DNA from: Clostridia bacterium
GTDB taxonomy: Bacteria; Bacteroidota; Bacteroidia; Bacteroidales; 4484-276
Reading direction: 5' to 3'
Length of the DNA stretch: 64,000 nucleotides
Assembly: GCA_009928785.1 (NCBI GenBank)
Contig: SABY01000001.1
Span: 23,633-87,632 of the forward strand
Each line of letters starts with the position of its first letter. The first letter of the stretch is position 1. Below the pieces are notes generated by a model that worked only from the letters and a program-made list of their open reading frames with translations, did no database searches and was not told the DNA's origin. The translations under genes were made by a program, and so were the position numbers. Shown in pieces: positions 3,629 through 47,846 of this stretch.

Positions 3629-3707
3629 AGTATAAAACCAAAACCCTCCGCGAATTCACACGAATTTGGCGAATTTTCATGATAAGGGAACTAGCGATAA
3701 TTCGTTT

Positions 3708-4090
3708 AATTGGCGGAAATTCGCGGACGGCTTGTTTATCCACGAATTCACCCGAATCAGTCGAATTCACACGAAAATTAAAAGACTGATTCCTTTTGAA
3801 GTTTCTATGTCAGCCTGATAGAAAGTCGCAGCAGGGGTCTGTTTTTTTATTTTTAAAATAATTAGCGGAAATTCGCGGACGGCTTGTTTATCCACGAATT
3901 CACGCGAATCAGGCGAATTCACACGAAAATTAAAAGACTGATTCCTTTTGACGTTTCTATGTCAGCCTGATAGAAAGTCGCGGCAGGGGTCTGTTTTTTT
4001 TATTTTTAAAATAATTAGCGAAAATTAGCTGAATTGGCGGAAATTCGCGGACGGCTTGTTTATCGAATTCACACGAAAATTAAAAGACAA
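3708..4090. repeat. Tandem repeat, 152-bp unit, about 2.4 copies (unit starts 3708, 3860, 4032)
   Basis: AAT(T/A)GCGGAAATTCGCGGACGG recurs at offsets of 152 and 172. The 172 offset reflects a 20-bp internal duplication. Each full unit has two GAATTCAC words, a hairpin TTTCTAT-N9-ATAGAAA (3802-3824 in copy 1) and a T-run. Confidence 0.85.
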
Positions 4091-12371: not shown

Positions 12372-12520
12372 AGACGCACGTCCCCCGCATGGGCGGGGCA
12401 GGCTGTGCGTCTCTACAATTGAAATCCCAAATCCCAAATCCCAAATCCCAAATCCCAAATCCCAAATCCCAAATCCAATTTCTTACTTCTAACTTCTATT
12501 CTCTTCCCTCTTAATTTCGT
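12372..12520. repeat. Composite intergenic element: nested GC hairpin, CAATTGAAATCC junction, (AAATCCC)x7 and an AT-rich tail
   Basis: Outer stem AGACGCAC/GTGCGTCT (12372-12379 / 12405-12412). Inner stem CCCCGC-ATGG-GCGGGG. Seven perfect heptads at 12422-12470 plus one imperfect. Tail TTCTTACTTCTAACTTCTATTCTCTTCCCTC. Confidence 0.9.
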
Positions 12521-16596: not shown

Positions 16597-17778
16597 TTGA
16601 GAGCCTACCCACGCATTACTGATCTCATAAATGATCTCACCGGAATCGACCTAAACCTGCCCGTTCAGACGTATGGCTTTTTTGTTGCACTGGCCTTCGT
16701 AGCAGGGGGGTTTATACTTTGGCTTGAGCTGGATCGGAAAGAAAAATCCGGCCAAATAAAGTTGAAAAACAGCCAGATGGTGACCAGGAAGAAGCCTGTG
16801 GCCGTCGAGTATCTCATTTCCGGAATCTTGTATTTTATCATCGGATTCAAGCTTACGGGAATCATTTTTAATTATGACGAGTTTACTGCCAATCCCCAGG
16901 GTTTTATATTTTCCGCCAAGGGATTTTATATTGGCGGTTTGGTGGTAATGGTGCCGGTATTGTGGATGATTTACCGGAAAGGGAAAAAAGCGGAAAGTGC
17001 AAACCCGGATGATGAAAAAGAATTGCGGGCGCGCGATCTTACACCGGCCATCGTTTTGGTAGCTGCTGTAGCCGGTATTGCCGGAGCCAAAATATTTGAT
17101 GTCGTCGAGCATCTCGATCAACTCTTCCGCGACCCGCTCGGCACACTATTTTCCTTTAGTGGATTAACTTTTTATGGAGGATTGCTCGTAGCGGCTTTTG
17201 CTGTAGGCATTTATGGCGAGCGCCACAATATCCGGTGGCCGGTAATGGCCGATGCGGTGGCTCCTGCTTTGATGCTTGCTTACGGCATAGGGCGCATTGG
17301 CTGCCAACTTTCCGGCGACGGCTGCTGGGGAATCGTGAATACGCTCACCAAACCAGCGTGGCTTACCTGGTTGCCCGATTTTATGTGGAGTTCCACCTTT
17401 CCGCACAACGTCATCAAAGAAGGCCTGCCACTGATGGATTGTAATGGAACCTATTGTTATGAATTGGGGCAGCCGGTTTTTCCTACTTCCCTTTACGAAA
17501 CGTTGATCGCTATTACTTTCTTTGGGGTGCTGTGGGCGCTCCGAAAACGTTTCACTGTTGCCGGAATGTTATTTTCGCTCTATCTGGTGCTAAATGGCAT
17601 AGCACGTTTTATTATCGAATTTGTGCGTGTTAATATTCGCTATCAGGTAGCTGGCTTCGAGGTGTCGCAGGCACAGATTATTGCTGTAATGCTGATTGTG
17701 GTGGGTGGCTTCGGTTTGTTTTATTTCAGATATTTGCATCCGATGGAAAGAAATCGCAAAAAATCAAATCCCAAATGA
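16597..17778 (+). CDS. lgt: Prolipoprotein diacylglyceryl transferase family protein
   Basis: Polytopic membrane protein. Lgt-like blocks [17 protein letters not shown] and [15 protein letters not shown] start with no nearby ATG. The last codons are built from the heptad-like AAATCNN repeat. Confidence 0.7.
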
Positions 17779-18000
17779 CAAAAGACAAATCACAAATAAA
17801 TCCCAAATTCCAAATTCTCAAAACCGTCGCTGGTTGAGCTTGTCGAAATCTGGTTATTAGGATTTATTTGGAACTTGTTTATTTGGAACTTGGAATTTCC
17901 CCAAAACTTGTTTATTTGGAACTTGGAATTTCCCCAAAACTTGTTTATTTGGAACTTGGAAATTCTCCAGGGCTTGTTATTTTGGAATCTGGGATTTAGC
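17764..18000. repeat. Composite repeat: period-7 tract (NNNNCAA), a central ~35 bp, then a 33-bp unit x~3.8; the arms form a long imperfect inverted repeat
   Basis: Unit CTTGTTTATTTGGAACTTGGAATTTCCCCAAAA starts at 17874, 17907, 17940 and 17973. Left AAATCCCAAATTCCAAA is nearly the reverse complement of right TTTTGGAATCTGGGATTT. Confidence 0.85.
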
Positions 18001-19280: not shown

Positions 19281-19287
19281 AAAACAA

Positions 19288-19371
19288 GAAGTTAGAGGGG
19301 AGAAGTTAGAGGGGAGAAGTTAGAGGGGAGAAGTTAGAGGGGAGAAGTTAGAGGGGAGAAGTTAGAGGGGA
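19288..19371. repeat. Perfect tandem repeat (GAAGTTAGAGGGGA)x6, 14-bp unit
   Basis: Six identical units counted from 19288 to 19371, starting 8 bp after the stop at 19280. Confidence 0.95.
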
Positions 19372-19479
19372 GAGATGAATTTAGAATTTTAGCACCAAAG
19401 GAGCGTTATTCCGATCGATCCCGGCAGGGCGACAGCAGTAAAATAGTTAAAAAAATAATCAATTTATTGTCATAAAAAA

Positions 19480-24090: not shown

Positions 24091-24231
24091 AAGTTAGATG
24101 TCAGAAGTTAGATGTTAGAAATTAGATTTAGGATTTTTAATTAGGAAGTAGAGACGCACAGCCTGCCCCGCCCATGCGGGGGACGTGCGTAAATAATTAC
24201 GAATGAATATTGAATTTTGAATTTTGAATTG
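24090..24231. repeat. Composite element: degenerate 14-mers (GAAGTTAGATGTNA), the same GC hairpin as at 12372 (inverted), and (TGAATTT)x~4
   Basis: 24148-24190 is a perfect reverse-complement match to 12374-12416 (43 nt). 14-mers at 24090-24131; heptads at 24204-24231. Confidence 0.9.
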
Positions 24232-27122: not shown

Positions 27123-27275
27123 AGACCAAACCCTTCGGAGGACGTGTGTCTGGAAATGCAATTGAAATCCGAATACCGAATACCGAATACCGAATACTGA
27201 ATACCGAATACCGAATACCGAATAACGAATACCGAATAACGGATAACGAATAACGAATAACGGATAACGAATTTT
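27123..27275. repeat. Composite element: short hairpin region, CAATTGAAATCC junction and 15 heptads (GAATACC grading to GAATAAC/GGATAAC)
   Basis: AGACCAAACCCTTCGGAGGACGTGTGTCT at 27123-27151. The junction at 27159-27170 is identical to 12416-12427. Heptads counted from 27171 to 27275. Confidence 0.9.
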
Positions 27276-39643: not shown

Positions 39644-41920
39644 ATGCTTTTCGATCTCGATCTAATCCAAAACGTTTACAATAAATTTCCTGCAAGAATC
39701 CAAAAGGCGCGTCAGCTTTTAAAGCGTCCGCTTACGCTCACCGAAAAAATCCTCTATGCCCATTTGTGGGATGAGGTGGGAAAAGAATATAACCGTGGCG
39801 CCGACTATGTGGATTTTGCCCCCGACCGCGTGGCCATGCAAGATGCTACCGCCCAGATGGCGCTGCTTCAATTTATGCAGGCCGGGCGCGACAAAGTGGC
39901 GGTGCCAAGCACGGTGCATTGCGATCACCTGATACAGGCGCGCGTGGGAGCCAAAGAAGATTTGAAGGTTGCTAAAGATAACAACCGGGAGGTTTTTGAT
40001 TTTCTTTCGTCGATATCCAATAAATATGGTATTGGTTTCTGGAAGCCGGGTGCCGGCATCATCCATCAGGTGGTGCTCGAAAACTATGCTTTTCCCGGCG
40101 GGATGATGATAGGAACCGATTCGCACACCGTGAATGCCGGCGGGCTTGGCATGATAGCCATTGGTGTAGGCGGCGCCGATGCTGTGGATGTAATGGCCGG
40201 CATGCCCTGGGAGCTGAAGATGCCGCGCATCATCGGTGTAAAATTAACGGGTAAACTCAGCGGATGGACATCCTCCAAAGACGTCATTCTGAAAGTTGCT
40301 GGTATCCTTACGGTAAAAGGCGGAACAGGTGCTATTGTTGAATATTTTGGCCCTGGCGCCGAGCATCTGAGCTGCACAGGCAAGGGCACGATATGTAATA
40401 TGGGCGCCGAGATTGGAGCAACCACTTCTTTATTCGGCTACGACCGGCGTATGTCGGATTACCTGCGTGCTACCGGACGTGCTCTGGTGGCCGACGCTGC
40501 CGATAAAATTGCCGGACATCTAATCGGTGATGAAGAAGTTTATAACGATCCCGGAGAATATTTCGATCAGGTTATCGAAATTGATCTTTCCCAACTGGAG
40601 CCGCACATCAACGGGCCTTTTACCCCGGATTTGGCCACGCCGGTATCGGAATTTGCGCAGGCAGCCCGCGACAACAACTGGCCACTGACGCTGGAGGTAG
40701 GCTTAATTGGTTCCTGTACCAATTCATCTTACGAAGACATTACCCGTGCTGCTTCAGTGGCGCAGCAGGCGCTCGACAACGATCTGGAAGTGAAATCGGA
40801 ATATACCGTTACGCCCGGTTCCGAGCAGGTGCGGTTTACAGTAGAACGCGACGGCTACCTCGACATCTTCGAAAAAATTGGCGGCGTGGTGCTGGCCAAT
40901 GCATGTGGCCCCTGCATCGGACAATGGGCACGCCACAATGCCGACAAGAAAGAGAAAAACTCTATCATGACGTCGTTCAATCGCAACTTTGCCAAACGCA
41001 ACGACGGCAACCCCAACACGCACGGTTTTGTGGCTTCGCCCGAAATTGTAACGGCTTTTGCCATTGCCGGCACCCTGGAGTTTAATCCGCTCACCGACAG
41101 CCTTATTAATAAAAAAGGAGAAAAAATAAAACTGAAAGAACCACAGGGAATCGAACTGCCTATTAAAGGTTTTGCTGTGGAAGACAATGGCTACCAGGAA
41201 CCTGCTCGCGATGGCAGCAACATCAGCGTTGAGGTGGCTCCCGACTCCGACCGTTTGCAGTTGCTTGCGCCTTTTGCACCCTGGGAAGGTCACGACATTA
41301 AAGGTCTAAGATTATTAATAAAAGCCAAAGGCAAATGTACCACCGACCACATTTCGATGGCCGGCCCCTGGCTGCGCTACCGTGGTCACCTGGATAATAT
41401 TTCCAACAACCTGCTTATTGGCGCCGAAAATGCCTTTACCGGAAAAACCAATCTTATCAAAAACCAGCTAAACGGTGCATATGATGCAGTGCCGGCGGTG
41501 GCAAGAGCTTACAAAGCGCAAGGCATTGGAACCATTGTGGTGGGCGACGAAAATTATGGCGAAGGCTCCTCACGCGAACATGCCGCTATGGAGCCGCGTC
41601 ATCTGGGCGTTAGAGCTGTGGTGGTGCGTAGTTTTGCACGCATACACGAAACCAACCTAAAAAAGCAAGGGATGCTCGCGCTTACCTTTGCCGACAAAAC
41701 CGATTACGGTAAAATTATGGAAGACGATACTTTCGACATCACAGGTCTCGAAACCTTTGAGCAAGGCCGTCCGCTGCAACTCATCGTTCACCACTTCGAC
41801 GGCACCACCAACAAAATGGAGATGCTGCACACCTATAGTCCGGTACAAATAGAATGGTTTAAAGCCGGCTCGGCGCTCAACCTTATCAAAAAGCAGAATG
41901 TGTTGACGGGGAGGAAGTAG
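39644..41920 (+). CDS. acnA: Aconitate hydratase (about 750-aa type)
   Basis: Aconitase family blocks including the Fe-S ligand contexts GSCTNSS and [10 protein letters not shown], plus the swivel domain. The stop TAG (41918-41920) lies inside the first GGAAGTA heptads. Confidence 0.9.
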
Positions 41921-42223
41921 GAAGTAGGAAGTAGGAAGTAGGAAGTAGGTAGCAGGAAGTAGGTAGTGGTTAGAACAAAGAAATTAGAATTTACCGTTGA
42001 GATGCCCGATCGTGTTCGTTTAATATTGTTGATGAATGAAACCTCTGCAGGCTTCCTGTCAATAATTCCCGGATTCATCAGGGATAGATGGAAGAAGAGC
42101 CAACTGCGAACTGCGAACTGTGTACTGTGGACTGTGGACTGTGAGCTGCCAACTGCGAACTGAGAACTGTGAGCTGCCAACTGAGAACTGCGAACTGTGG
42201 ACTGCGAGCTGCCAACTGCAACT
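41913..42223. repeat. Composite element: (GGAAGTA)x~8, a ~130-bp core, then 17+ heptads of the form GNNNACT
   Basis: Left array 41913-41968. Right array 42099-42223 (GCCAACT, GCGAACT, GTGGACT, GTGAGCT...), with a higher-order ~28-bp pattern. Confidence 0.9.
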
Positions 42224-42434
42224 GCCTTTTGTTGATTTTTTAACCCAAAACCTGGGTAAAGGTATCCACAAGCTATTGGGTTGATAAATTTTTGTATTTT
42301 AAACTAAATATCAGAAAACCAATGATATAGTTTTGAAATTCCTTCGATTTCCTTTTTTATCCCTTTTGGCACGATACTCTCAAGTTCCCTTTTATTGTTA
42401 TAAATAAATTGTTAAACCTAAAAAGTAATACGCC

Positions 42435-43380: not shown

Positions 43381-43419
43381 AATCCCGGCTGCATGTGTGC
43401 GCCGGGATTTATTTTTTTT
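43381..43419 (+). terminator. Rho-independent terminator after the acidic lipoprotein gene
   Basis: AATCCCGGCTGCATGTGTGCGCCGGGATTT stem-loop followed by ATTTTTTTT. Confidence 0.6.
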
Positions 43420-43452: not shown

Positions 43453-43490
43453 TAGAACAAAATCCCGGTTGCAGTTGTGCTCCGGGATTT
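43453..43490 (-). terminator. Terminator-like hairpin for the minus-strand PLP enzyme gene (paralogous to the hairpin at 43381)
   Basis: AATCCCGGTTGCAGTTGTGCTCCGGGATTT; on the minus strand it is followed by TTTTGTTC. Confidence 0.45.
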
Positions 43491-43571: not shown

Positions 43572-44774
43572 TTATTTGATCATTCCAGCCTGCTTCAGGC
43601 ATTTTTTGATCATGTCGAAAGTGCGGTCGATCTCGCTGTCCAATCCTACGGAAAAACGGATGAGACCTTCGGAAAGACCCATTTCTTTTTGTTTCTCTTC
43701 GGGGACTTCTGATGAGGTGCTTTTGCCTGAGTTGCTAAACAATGTTTTAAAATAGCCGAGGCTCACCGCCAGATAGCCAACCCCTTCGCTTTCCATCATC
43801 TCCATTACTTCGGCGGCTTTGTCGGCGGTGCCGGCATCGAATGAGAGCATGCCTCCAAAACCATATTTTTCGTTCATAATCGATTTCAACAAGGCGTGGC
43901 CGGAATGTTTTTTGAGGCCGGGATAGTTCACCGTAATTCCAATTTCTTCCAGCTTCTCGGCCAGATACATGGCGTTGCGGCTGTGCTGTTGCATGCGGAT
44001 ATGCAGTGTGTGCAGGTTTTTCAAAATTGACGACGAGCGAAACGGATCGAGCACAGGGCCCAAAAGCATCGCAGTGCCGCTGTTCACGTCGATGAGCGAG
44101 GCAATAAACTCTTTGCTTCCGCAGATGGCACCGGCTACGCAATCGTTTTTACCATTAACAAATTTGGTGAGGCTGTACAACACCACGTCGGCGCCCAGTT
44201 GCGCCGGGGTAATCATCATCGGGGTAAAGGTGTTATCAACCAGCAACTTTGCGTTATGCTTGTGTGCTATGTCGGCCAGACGCCGCACATCCGAAACTTC
44301 GAGCAGCGGGTTGGTAACAGTTTCGGTATAAACGATGCGCGTGTTGGGTTTGATGGCGGCTTCCACTTCTTTCAGATCGGTAATATTTACGAAAGTCACC
44401 CCGATGTTGAATTTCTCCACGTAGTTGTTCAGAAAAGCAAAAGTGCCTCCGTAGGTGGTGCGGCTTGCCACAATGTGGTCGCCGGCGTTGCAAAGTTGCA
44501 AAATTGCGGAAGTGATGGCGCCCATGCCCGATGCTGTAACCCAGGCTGCTTCGGTGCCTTCCATGGCGGCCAGCGCATCAGCCAGATATTTATTGCTGGG
44601 GTTCCAGTGGCGTGAGTAAAGGAAACACCCTTCGGCCTCGCCATGAAAAGTGTCGAGCATGGTCTTGGCCTGCATAAAAGTGAATGTTGCCGAATCGGTG
44701 ACGGATGGATTTACATCGCCATACTCGCCAAACTGTAATAAATCCTGAATTTTACTTGCCGGATCAAATTTCAT
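43572..44774 (-). CDS. Cys/Met-metabolism PLP-dependent enzyme (methionine gamma-lyase-like)
   Basis: PLP-lysine context YSLTKFVNGKND and N-terminal YSRHWNP; 400 aa, typical of the family. Exact reaction specificity was not determined. Confidence 0.8.
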   Translation of the reverse strand: MKFDPASKIQDLLQFGEYGDVNPSVTDSATFTFMQAKTMLDTFHGEAEGCFLYSRHWNPSNKYLADALAAMEGTEAAWVTASGMGAITSAILQLCNAGDHIVASRTTYGGTFAFLNNYVEKFNIGVTFVNITDLKEVEAAIKPNTRIVYTETVTNPLLEVSDVRRLADIAHKHNAKLLVDNTFTPMMITPAQLGADVVLYSLTKFVNGKNDCVAGAICGSKEFIASLIDVNSGTAMLLGPVLDPFRSSSILKNLHTLHIRMQQHSRNAMYLAEKLEEIGITVNYPGLKKHSGHALLKSIMNEKYGFGGMLSFDAGTADKAAEVMEMMESEGVGYLAVSLGYFKTLFSNSGKSTSSEVPEEKQKEMGLSEGLIRFSVGLDSEIDRTFDMIKKCLKQAGMIK

Positions 44775-44946
44775 AATTGTATATTTTTTATGATGATTAA
44801 ATTTTGAAATGTCGAAGCAAAACTATAGAAAATGCACCGGATTAAAGGTTGTTTCTCTGTTGATTTTAAAAACTGTAATCAAAAACATGAACATCATAAA
44901 AAACTGTAAGTTTGCTAATTGATTTTTAGAATGTAGATTTCAGTTT

Positions 44947-45083
44947 AAACAAACAAACACCGAACACCAAACAACAAACACCAAGCAACAAACTTGAGCG
45001 TAGCTGCCTGCCCCGACCCATCGGGGAAATCCCGAGAGCTTTGCGATTCGGGAAACAAACAACGAACAACAAACAACGAACAG
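44947..45083. repeat. Composite element: (CAAACAC/CAAACAA)x~7, two GC hairpins, then (AAACAAC/AACGAAC)x~4
   Basis: Hairpins CCCCGA-CCCA-TCGGGG (45011-45026) and CCCGA-N12-TCGGG (45031-45052). Heptad tracts at 44947-44993 and 45053-45083. Confidence 0.85.
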
Positions 45084-45087
45084 TTTT

Positions 45088-45558
45088 ATGACCGAAAATT
45101 TCAAACTCGACAGCCTCGACCGGCGCATTCTGGCGCTACTCACCGCCGACGCCCGGATGCCGTATCTCCAGGTAGCGCGCCATTGCAAAGTGTCGGGAGC
45201 AGCCATCCATCAGCGGGTGCAAAAAATGACCGAAGCCGGCGTCATCACCGGCGCGCAGGTAACCATTTCGCGCAGCGGCTTTGGCTATCTCACCTGCGCT
45301 TTCATCGGCTTACAAGTCAACCTTACTGCTACAAGCACACATGAGGAGGTTTTTCAGAAAATAAAACAAATCCCTGAAATCGTCGAGTGCCACCATATCA
45401 CCGGCAAATATTCGCTGTTGGTAAAAATTCTGGCTCGTAACAATGAGCAGCTCAAAAACATCATCGTCGAGCAAATCCAGTCCATCCCGGAGATTGTAGC
45501 CACCGAAACCTTCATCTCGCTCGAAGAGGGTTTTGTGCGCCCGCTGCCTGTGGAATAA
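45088..45558 (+). CDS. Lrp/AsnC family transcriptional regulator
   Basis: N-terminal HTH (LDRRILALLTADARMPYLQVARHCKVSGAAIHQRV) and a C-terminal RAM domain; 156 aa. Confidence 0.9.
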   Translation: MTENFKLDSLDRRILALLTADARMPYLQVARHCKVSGAAIHQRVQKMTEAGVITGAQVTISRSGFGYLTCAFIGLQVNLTATSTHEEVFQKIKQIPEIVECHHITGKYSLLVKILARNNEQLKNIIVEQIQSIPEIVATETFISLEEGFVRPLPVE

Positions 45559-47303: not shown

Positions 47304-47689
47304 TAACCTTTCTATCTCCTCCTTCATCGGACCGTAGAAAGTTGCTACCCCCCCCACAGACTTTCGAGCGTCCGAAGGACCTCGAAACGTCAACAAACGA
47401 AACTAACCTTTCTATCTCCTCCTTCATCGGACCGTAGAAAGTTGCTACCCCCCCCACAGACTTTCGAGCGTCCGAAGAACCTCGAAACGTCAACGAACGA
47501 ACCTAACCTTTTCTATCTCCTCCTTCATCGGACGATAGAAAGTTGCTACCCCCCCACAGACTTTCGAGCGTCCGAAGGGACCTCGAAACGTCAAACAAAC
47601 AACAAACAACAAACAACAAACAACAAACAACGAACAACAAACAACGAACAACAAACAACAAACAACGAACAACGAACAACAAACAACGA
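47304..47689. repeat. Three tandem copies of an exactly 100-bp unit (starts 47304, 47404, 47504) running into ~14 heptads (AACAAAC/AACGAAC)
   Basis: Copies 1 and 2 differ at 3 positions. Each unit has hairpin A (CTTTCTA...TAGAAAG, 47308-47341), a C7-8 run and hairpin B (TTTCGAG-C-GTCC-GAA-GGAC-CTCGAAA, 47362-47387). The heptad tract spans about 47593-47689. Confidence 0.9.
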
Positions 47690-47846
47690 CCTGTGCTTCC
47701 AAACCCTAAGGTACTCGCAGGCAGTAATGTAAGCGTATTTGTATTGTTGATGTATGGCTGGGTTTTGGGCATTGTAGCTACAAAGTGGCGATGGATTTTT
47801 TGGTGGTAAACTATGCGCGTAGTAATCTTGCAGCTCAAAATTATTC

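Follow-up and report, generated by a model that had tools for sequence, protein, structure and literature searches.

Heptamer microsatellites are among the most abundant repeat classes of bacteria and among the least understood, and reports on them are mostly catalogues. In Nostoc punctiforme, according to a report by Elhai and colleagues in 2008, small dispersed repeats (SDR) of 21–27 nt are located within heptamer arrays. The subject here is a site of a related kind, two heptad arrays and an intervening palindrome directly upstream of an lrp gene, in a 64,000-nt stretch of contig SABY01000001.1 (the window, which means the whole stretch that was analyzed). Tandem 7-nt units have been described as heptanucleotide long simple sequence repeats (LSSRs; Mrazek 2007), as the short tandemly repeated repetitive sequences (STRRs) of cyanobacteria, and as arrays of heptamers that Beggiatoaceae and Cyanobacteria share with a few Bacteroidetes (PMC4679880). 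GGGAATC repeats are known from Xanthomonas and Nostoc, and an excess of heptamer simple sequence repeats (SSRs) was reported together with intergenic variability (PMC4692102, PMC4679880). The repetitive extragenic palindromic (REP) sequences and REP doublets forming hairpins (REPINs) are the class of small dispersed elements used for comparison with the palindromes (PMC3116915, PMC3733652).

Repeats are also known from 5' untranslated regions (UTRs). The (ATCTTTC)n repeat in the 5' UTR of hmw1A and hmw2A of Haemophilus influenzae is phase-variable, and expression is inversely proportional to the repeat number; the tract is long and perfect with at least 11 units, pairs with a G-rich arm to form a hairpin processed by RNase III, and precedes the gene of a surface adhesin (PMC8262952, PMC12721329). 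Moraxella catarrhalis uspA2 carries an AGAT repeat in its 5' UTR (cited in PMC4679880). Local Lrp/AsnC regulators encoded divergently from their targets include AsnC-asnA, BkdR-bkd, and MdeR-mdeAB (PMC8707732). In the primary promoters of Bacteroidetes, the −7 box reads TAnnTTTG and extends from a T at −12 to a G at −5, and translation in these bacteria is initiated without Shine-Dalgarno pairing and is favored by an A-rich, unstructured upstream sequence (PMC6847099).

The reading preferred here, with a probability of roughly 0.6, is that the feature is a lineage-specific, tolerated, slippage-prone STRR-like microsatellite into which small mobile palindromes insert. The lrp gene would be transcribed from a conserved Bacteroidetes-type promoter, and the whole repeat and palindrome block would be copied into an untranslated leader of ~169 nt, versus ~45 nt typically. 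An AACRAAC-type heptanucleotide microsatellite, which belongs to a genome-wide set of period-7 arrays, appears to have been split in two by an inserted palindromic element of 60 bp. Whole 7-nt units would be gained and lost between strains, with replication slippage as the assumed mechanism, and small palindromes would insert into the arrays repeatedly. The heptads are A/C-rich and G-poor, are predicted to be single-stranded, and would leave the start-codon region open; because A-rich, unstructured heptads suit initiation independent of Shine-Dalgarno pairing, the site may tolerate repeat growth. The promoter and operator core common to lrp and the divergent gene of a pyridoxal phosphate (PLP)-dependent enzyme would stay untouched. 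The net regulatory effect is most likely small and confined to leader length and perhaps mRNA half-life, and the repeats would be tolerated, selfish or neutral DNA and no dedicated switch.

Conserved Core and Position of the Repeats

The gap between the two divergent genes is 313 bp long and consists of a promoter and operator core, a left heptad array, a palindromic element with two hairpins, and a right heptad array (Table 1). The earlier note on this DNA had listed the gap, the left heptads, the two GC hairpins, and the right AACAAAC/AACGAAC heptads, and all of them were recovered in place, including the end of the right heptads in sense orientation 5 nt (GTTTT) before the lrp ATG. Open reading frames overlapping the repeats were set aside as resembling repeat translations, with no coding test applied.

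Table 1. Positions of the features in the window. Array positions given as one number are starts.
Feature	Position	Strand	Basis or remark
Conserved divergent promoter/operator core, 172 bp	44775–44946	.	MAFFT alignment, 12 lineages of the species complex
Predicted −7 box of the PLP gene, TAGTTTTG	44818–44825	−	No other exact minus-strand TAnnTTTG within the gap
AAAAACTGTAA box, copy 1, candidate Lrp/AsnC operator half-site	44868–44878	+	Read from sequence
AAAAACTGTAA box, copy 2, overlapping the lrp −7 box	44899–44909	+	Read from sequence
Predicted −7 box of lrp, TAAGTTTG	44907–44914	+	No other exact plus-strand TAnnTTTG within the gap
Left heptad array, CAAACAC/GAACACC/AAACAAC type, ~6.5 degenerate units	44947–44993	+	Tandem Repeats Finder (TRF), period-7 scan
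Palindromic dispersed element, 60 bp, TTGAGCGTAGCTGCCTGCCCCGACCCATCGGGGAAATCCCGAGAGCTTTGCGATTCGGGA	44994–45053	+	Relatives by regular expression; splits the heptad array
Hairpin 1, CCCCGA-CCCA-TCGGGG	45011–45026	+	Predicted fold
Hairpin 2, UCCCGAG...UUCGGGA, 7-pair stem and small inner stem	45030–45053	+	Predicted fold
Right heptad array, AACAAAC/AACGAAC x4	45054–45082	+	TRF, period 7 x4.1; perfect 14-mer AACAAACAACGAAC x2.1
Cys/Met-metabolism PLP-dependent enzyme (methionine-gamma-lyase-like), 400 aa	43572–44774	−	Pfam PF01053 Cys_Met_Meta_PP, E = 2.5e-99
AsnC/Lrp-family transcriptional regulator (lrp), 156 aa	45088–45558	+	Pfam PF13404 (HTH_AsnC-type) and PF01037 (AsnC_trans_reg)
Array AAATCCC x8	12422		TRF
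Array CAAATCA x4.7	17765		TRF
Array AGAAGTTAGAGGGG x6	19287		TRF
Array AGAAGTT x6.4	24082		TRF
Array TGAATTT x3.9	24204		TRF
Array CCGAATA x15	27169		TRF
Array AGGAAGT x8	41912		TRF
Array AACTGCG x18	42102		TRF
Array AACAAAC x13	47594		TRF

The core is 170–174 bp long across the 12 lineages, and 89 of the 176 alignment columns are invariant. The invariant blocks are TCGAAGCAAAACTA, TTTAAAAACTG.AA, and AAAAAC..TAAGTTTG. The stretch from the core to the lrp ATG ranges from 53 to 287 bp in the same lineages.

The core contains one predicted −7 box for each gene. The box of the PLP gene is located 51 nt from the PLP ATG, which would place the transcription start site (TSS) at ~44813 and give a 5' UTR of ~39 nt; its position is kept in the orthologous loci, 32–68 nt from the PLP ATG. 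The lrp box is invariant in the species complex and is 181 nt from the lrp ATG, which would correspond to a TSS at ~44919 and a 5' UTR of ~169 nt. The distance from the −7 box to the ATG is 22–61 nt in other genes of the window, and among 49 orthologous loci the lrp box is mostly 36–60 nt from the ATG but 103–601 nt in the clade of the window. Taking out the 136-bp repeat and hairpin block would bring the lrp box to ~45 nt from the ATG. An exact scan of the gap revealed no further TAnnTTTG between the heptad arrays and the lrp ATG. Judged from the predicted box, the repeats lie downstream of the lrp promoter, with the array start ~28 nt downstream of the predicted TSS, in the predicted lrp 5' UTR.

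The AAAAACTGTAA boxes are direct copies 31 bp apart and are invariant or nearly so in 12 of 12 lineages. They are candidate operator sites for an Lrp/AsnC-type regulator.

The earlier note had proposed that length changes in the arrays alter both the operator-promoter spacing and the lrp 5' UTR. The second part agrees with the prediction of the conserved −7 box. The first part, in which array length would switch the transcription of lrp, the PLP gene, or both, takes its appeal from the location of the arrays in the gap of a conserved divergent regulator/target pair. Both −7 boxes and the AAAAACTGTAA boxes are, however, within the core of constant length, every length change is downstream of the lrp −7 box, and the arrays are followed by no alternative TAnnTTTG. 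As the core is constant and variation is found only downstream of it, the repeats would be unable to alter the operator-promoter spacing, and a spacing switch is extremely improbable.

Two sigma-70-like matches equal the expectation from shuffled sequences, and the sigma-70 model is inapplicable to Bacteroidetes; these candidate promoters were rejected. No terminator-like site was found in 44600–45300.

One lineage, L046, has its expansion on the other side. A period-8 array, CTATCAAC x ~10, is located between the PLP −7 box and the PLP ATG, and the expanded leader there is that of the PLP gene and not that of lrp.

Length Variation of the Heptad Arrays

Both arrays of the window consist of at least three head-to-tail 7-nt units. 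TRF reported the left array with period 7 at 44954–44993 (5.7 copies, 78% matches) and also with period 21 from 44947. The 14-mer pattern AACAAACAACNAAC, allowing at most one mismatch, has 18 matches in the window versus 0.13 expected.

Contigs of the same species and of sister lineages were obtained through the members of 90% Lrp clusters, and the length differences reported below are differences between samples, taken from assembled contigs. Contig L161 (Lrp P0124) is conspecific and 97.9% identical to the window over 2293 bp with no gaps. It begins inside the right array, and at 51 nt from the ATG it still consists of heptads, whereas hairpin 2 occupies this position in the window; its right array has at least 6.5 units, versus 4 in the window. 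In the lineage P0121, the gap is 353 bp (L162 and L164) or 311 bp (L163). L162 and L163 are 98.0% identical, and the 42 bp (6 units) that separate L162 and L164 from L163 are the sole indel in 4.7 kb.

Ten contigs of P0127, all identical, have a gap of 283 bp with flanks 84% identical to the window. They contain the same palindrome, preceded by ~1.7 units, and their right array falls short of that of the window by exactly 21 nt (3 units). The Lrp of P0128 differs from that of the window at 5 residues, and L181 and five other contigs of this lineage have an uninterrupted array of 7 units with no central element (four full gaps of 223 bp; two contigs are truncated upstream). P0125, whose Lrp differs at 6 residues, retains 2–3 degenerate units only. 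In P0002 (L191), with 8 Lrp differences, the gap reaches 461 bp and contains ~12 copies of the 14-mer of the window (~24 AACAAAC/AACGAAC units). Six other P0002 assemblies break within that array, 35–47 nt before the ATG.

AACRAWY and AACACCR variants account for the units of every lineage, and the whole looks like one old array changed by point mutation and by duplication and loss of units. Copy number varies among close relatives with conserved flanks. Lineages with very short arrays are invariant: P0125 is identical in 13 contigs, possibly not all independent, and P0127 in the 10 contigs mentioned. The length heterogeneity on which the proposal of the earlier note depended is present, between strains and lineages and in multiples of 7.

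These data bear on a contingency or rheostat locus, in which slippage in the transcribed arrays would alter leader length and tune Lrp dosage heritably and reversibly. The route would be mRNA processing or decay, or Rho-type premature termination on a long C-rich, G-poor untranslated RNA, and Lrp dosage would then set the expression of the divergent PLP enzyme. Copy number that differs in multiples of 7 between conspecific or near-conspecific contigs, an array within the predicted 5' UTR of a regulator, predicted leaders of 81–316 nt across the species complex, and the (ATCTTTC)n precedent of hmw1A (PMC8262952, PMC12721329) are consistent with it. The repeated contig breaks in the long array allele are compatible with heterogeneity, but are equally explained by repeats exceeding the assembler k-mer. 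The arrays of the window are short and imperfect, with 4–6.5 units and 78–86% matches by TRF, unlike the long, perfect tracts of classic contingency loci, and a long, near-perfect allele was found only in the sister lineage L191. Arrays of the same kind occur in many unrelated spacers, and the predicted accessibility of the start site is independent of array length. A rheostat, the main rival reading, is regarded as unlikely, and the tolerated microsatellite remains the preferred explanation of the length differences.

Sequencing-adapter remnants are present at two contig ends, L187:1–15 (GTGTATAAGAGACAG, Nextera) and L189:1–50 (ACACTCTTTCCCTACACGACGCTCTTCCGATCT, TruSeq). They abut the lrp leader or the core directly and are assembly artefacts, not biology.

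Predicted Structure of the Leader

The predicted leaders of the 12 lineages were folded. The heptads are predicted to be unpaired and the palindromes to form local hairpins. The mean unpaired probability at −20 to +10 is 0.54–0.76 and shows no trend with array length; a switch of the start-region structure by array length is not supported. The variable part of the leader is A-rich (32–50%) and G-poor (9–26%) in the 12 lineages.

The A/C-rich heptads by the start codon could instead recruit an RNA-binding protein such as ribosomal protein bS1, a cold-shock protein, or a protein with an RNA-recognition motif. In Beggiatoaceae and some Bacteroidetes, TAACTGA repeats shortly before start codons were proposed to serve as a platform for RNA-binding proteins, and 12 of 14 repeat sets of Flexibacter litoralis are 1–43 nt upstream of start codons (MacGregor 2015, PMC4679880). 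In Bacteroidetes, A-rich motifs at positions −12 to −15 are believed to interact with bS1 (PMC6847099). The sense orientation of the right array and its end next to the ATG would fit such a platform, as would the A-rich, G-poor units closest to the ATG in every lineage. On the other hand, the units differ by lineage (AACGATT, AACAAAT, AACAAAC, and GAACACC) with only A-richness conserved, and the other arrays of the window do not adjoin start codons. Protein recruitment by the heptads is highly doubtful.

An Rfam search of 44500–45400 at E ≤ 1 returned two matches at chance level (E = 0.32 and 0.42), far under the gathering scores. With no curated Rfam match, a riboswitch or known leader RNA was rejected. 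No signature of a hairpin/U-tract terminator fits either.

Palindromic Elements within the Arrays

Judged from its sequence relatives, the hairpin block between the two arrays is a 60-bp palindromic dispersed element inserted into the array. The two predicted hairpins (fold of 44994–45056) reach −22.8 kcal/mol with z = −2.1, which was equalled by 6 of 200 shuffles. The regular expression GAGCG[TA]AGC.GCCTGCCCCGACC..TCGGGGA detects two relatives each in L004, L087, and L088, and one in L090, which is inverted and located within an expanded lrp leader. A variant of the palindrome, AGAGACGCACAGCCTGCCCCGCCCATGCGGGGGACGTGCGT, is present in the window at 12403 (−) and 24161 (+), in both cases adjoining heptad arrays. 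These copies and hairpin 1 of the lrp leader have a common GCCTGCCCCG...CGGGG core. The sixth stem pair is C-G in the copies at 12383 and 24166 and A-T in the lrp copy, so the pairing is kept through a change in each arm of the stem. The 64-kb window contains three related copies (12403, 24161, and 45006), all at heptad arrays. No Rfam family was found for the sequence family GAGCGTAGC.GCCTGCCCCGACC..TCGGGG.

The two AGAGACGCACAGCCTGCCCCGCCCATGCGGGGGACGTGCGT regions, 12378–12415 (−) and 24144–24190 (+), are inverted copies of a nested palindrome of ~40 nt with heptad arrays on their flanks. The flanking heptads are AAATCCC x8 for one, and AGAAGTT/AGATGTC and TGAATTT for the other.

An empty site and a filled site are represented in one lineage. 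The array is uninterrupted in L181, and in L182 a GC-rich palindrome of 69 bp is located within one heptad; this element belongs to another palindrome family than that of the window. Three unrelated families were found in the same array across the lineages: the GCCTGCCCCG type, the CCTGAGC...GGTTGAGC type, which is also present downstream in L082, and the GCGAAG...GCAATG type. The GCCTGCCCCG family alone is consistently at arrays, in 3 of 3 copies.

The palindrome of the window is identical to that of the P0127 lineage at 59 of 60 positions, versus 84% identity in the flanks and 78% in the promoter core (p ~4e-4). The difference from the flanks and core suggests mobility or constraint. In hairpin 2 of P0127, the loop sequence TTT is replaced by a nested hairpin of 25 nt. 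P0127 and P0125 are 95.5% identical in their flanks, and their variable regions are wholly different.

The near-invariant palindrome and a possible dosage dial on a regulator keep alive another reading, in which slippage and captured palindromes together would set Lrp levels and hence the PLP enzyme, and the arrays would be landing pads for mobile hairpins. It is considered quite unlikely. If true, co-existing digester strains would differ heritably in their Lrp regulon, and the landing pads would parallel, in Bacteroidales, the STRR/SDR association of cyanobacteria, with a regulatory pay-off in addition.

Period-7 Repeats in the Window and in Related Loci

The window contains 15 period-7 runs covering 705 bp, and no runs of periods 5, 6, 8, 9, or 10. 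All period-7 runs are intergenic, and the unit is 14 nt in two extra arrays. Related Bacteroidales loci, 1.06 Mb in all, contain 42 period-7 arrays and 29 period-8 arrays, with at most 8 for each other period. Arrays of unrelated unit sequence are present in ~9 other spacers of the window (Table 1), and the lrp locus is therefore not special for carrying them. The other arrays are mostly 55–210 nt upstream of the next start codon.

Several of these spacers have further structure. The perfect 14-mer AGAAGTTAGAGGGG x6.2 occupies 19287–19373, soon after a stop codon, and CCGAATA x15 extends over 27169–27272. AGGAAGT x8 (41912–41967) and AACTGCG x18 (42102–42225) are on either side of ~130 bp of unique sequence. 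At 17757–17987, CAAATCA heptads are accompanied by a 33-bp repeat x3.5. Compared with the lrp arrays, the perfect arrays elsewhere in the window are stronger candidates for ongoing changes in length.

A larger block at 47304–47692 contains a 100-bp unit x3 (94% matches) with two hairpins per unit, immediately followed by AACAAAC/AACGAAC x13, the unit family of the lrp right array. The start of this block is also where the conspecific contig L161 breaks off. Behind the TPR/LuxR-like gene, the spacer measures only 61 bp in L162, and in L181, L182, and L082 it carries quite different repeats. A repeat class other than heptads is found at 3707–4051, where a 152-bp tandem repeat x2.1 (95% matches) with 10-nt sub-repeats AATTCGCGGA and CACGAATTCA is located in a 507-bp spacer between plus- and minus-strand genes.

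Host and Neighboring Genes

The divergent pair of lrp and the PLP gene is conserved in the 49 orthologous Bacteroidales loci. The nearest relatives of the PLP protein are metagenome-assembled genomes (MAGs) labelled Bacteroidales or Lentimicrobiaceae. The close relatives of lrp and of the neighboring genes are likewise all Bacteroidales or Lentimicrobiaceae, and the promoters are of the Bacteroidetes type. The Lrp of the window (P0122) is identical to NCA83994.1, from a 161,475-bp contig of a MAG labelled "Clostridia bacterium". This public label is probably a binning or taxonomy error, and the host is an uncultured Lentimicrobiaceae-like Bacteroidales bacterium. An exact protein look-up of the Lrp and PLP proteins of the window returned no record, and a metagenome scan revealed no locus with an identical protein.

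The earlier note had called the PLP gene methionine-gamma-lyase-like and had pointed out that Lrp-family regulators commonly control their divergent neighbor. The assignment holds for the Cys/Met-metabolism PLP family. The top NCBIfam model is TIGR01328 met_gam_lyase, with 308 bits versus a cut-off of 549.7, and the O-succinylhomoserine sulfhydrylase model scores nearly equally; as the TIGR01328 score is under the cut-off, the enzyme deserves the name "methionine-gamma-lyase-like" only. As for the regulation, the conserved arrangement fits the AsnC/BkdR/MdeR pattern (PMC8707732), and by this analogy the Lrp-family protein probably controls its PLP neighbor.

The flank of lrp on the other side is variable too. 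In some lineages, small genes are located between lrp and a TPR gene (L176:3011–3951, L188:1292–1552, and L208:851–1515), and several of the contigs with these small genes have a split or truncated TPR gene. L176–L180 carry DUF6364 and an unannotated gene of 136–147 aa there, L188, which is truncated, carries DUF6364 alone, and L208 carries DUF6364 and a PIN-domain gene in a toxin-antitoxin-like arrangement. Beyond the 3' end of the PLP gene, in its convergent spacer with a 167-aa gene, are two similar hairpins, TCCCGG(N13)CCGGGA, at 43383–43407 and 43463–43487, 80 bp apart. Either bidirectional termination or membership in a further small repeat family may account for them.

Discussion

The preference for a tolerated STRR-like microsatellite has to be weighed against several observations. 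Neutrality cannot be assumed, because in hmw1A a heptad repeat of the 5' UTR has been proven to act as an expression rheostat (PMC8262952, PMC12721329). The identity of the palindrome at 59 of 60 positions may have a functional cause besides recent mobility. For GC hairpins in general, an association with arrays falls short of significance in the window (arrays are near 3 of 12 intergenic hairpins, p = 0.5). No array of the window other than that of lrp abuts a start codon, and near matches to the −7 box, seen by eye, are located between some of the other arrays and the ATG. Each −7 box of the core has G at position −9 or −10, a base rarely seen there in the promoters of Flavobacterium johnsoniae.

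The value of the site is that the lrp array can be traced between fixed unique anchors, the constant 172-bp core and the ATG. The series shows exact gains and losses of 7 nt, expansion to ~24 units, an empty site, and three palindrome insertions. It is a natural test bed for array growth, for the targeting of mobile hairpins, and for the question whether a varying leader length tunes a regulator in bacteria without Shine-Dalgarno initiation. If the repeats are neutral, the value is practical: assemblies break there, and the heptads should not be read as operators or switches.

Comparison with Known Systems

The components of the locus are all of known kinds, namely heptamer SSRs with small dispersed palindromes embedded in them, a 5'-UTR SSR, and a divergent regulator/target pair of the Lrp type. 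The arrays resemble LSSRs and STRRs in their tandem 7-nt units, their strictly intergenic location, and the over-representation of period 7 versus neighboring periods. Diverse units in one genome, some arrays directly upstream of start codons, and length and sequence that vary among close relatives with conserved flanking genes are further similarities. The host here is a Lentimicrobiaceae-like Bacteroidales bacterium, and the likeness is of kind, not of mechanism.

The palindromes are comparable to SDR and REP elements. A short GC-rich, hairpin-forming palindrome is located in a heptad array, related copies are present in the same and in other genomes, an empty and a filled site exist, and copies are far more conserved than their flanks. 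The elements in the lrp leader are 60–69 bp, larger than the size reported for SDRs. Further differences are that only three related copies are visible in the 64 kb and that the sequence family has no Rfam match.

The hmw repeats and the lrp arrays are both 7-nt SSRs between a promoter, here a predicted one, and a start codon, and in both the copy number differs between strains. The lrp tracts differ in being short, degenerate, predicted to be unpaired, and ahead of a metabolic regulator.

In common with AsnC, BkdR, and MdeR, the regulator has an AsnC-type helix-turn-helix and a ligand-binding domain, a conserved divergent enzyme of amino-acid metabolism, and a conserved A/T-rich common promoter region with repeated boxes. 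The enzyme here is below the methionine gamma-lyase cut-off, and the likeness concerns the 172-bp core, not the repeats. What is new is the lineage, an uncultured Bacteroidales of digesters, and an unusually clear comparative series at one anchored site; as a point of difference from the described LSSRs and STRRs, the history of the lrp array can be traced across the members of a species complex, with unit differences counted exactly and three independent palindrome insertions.

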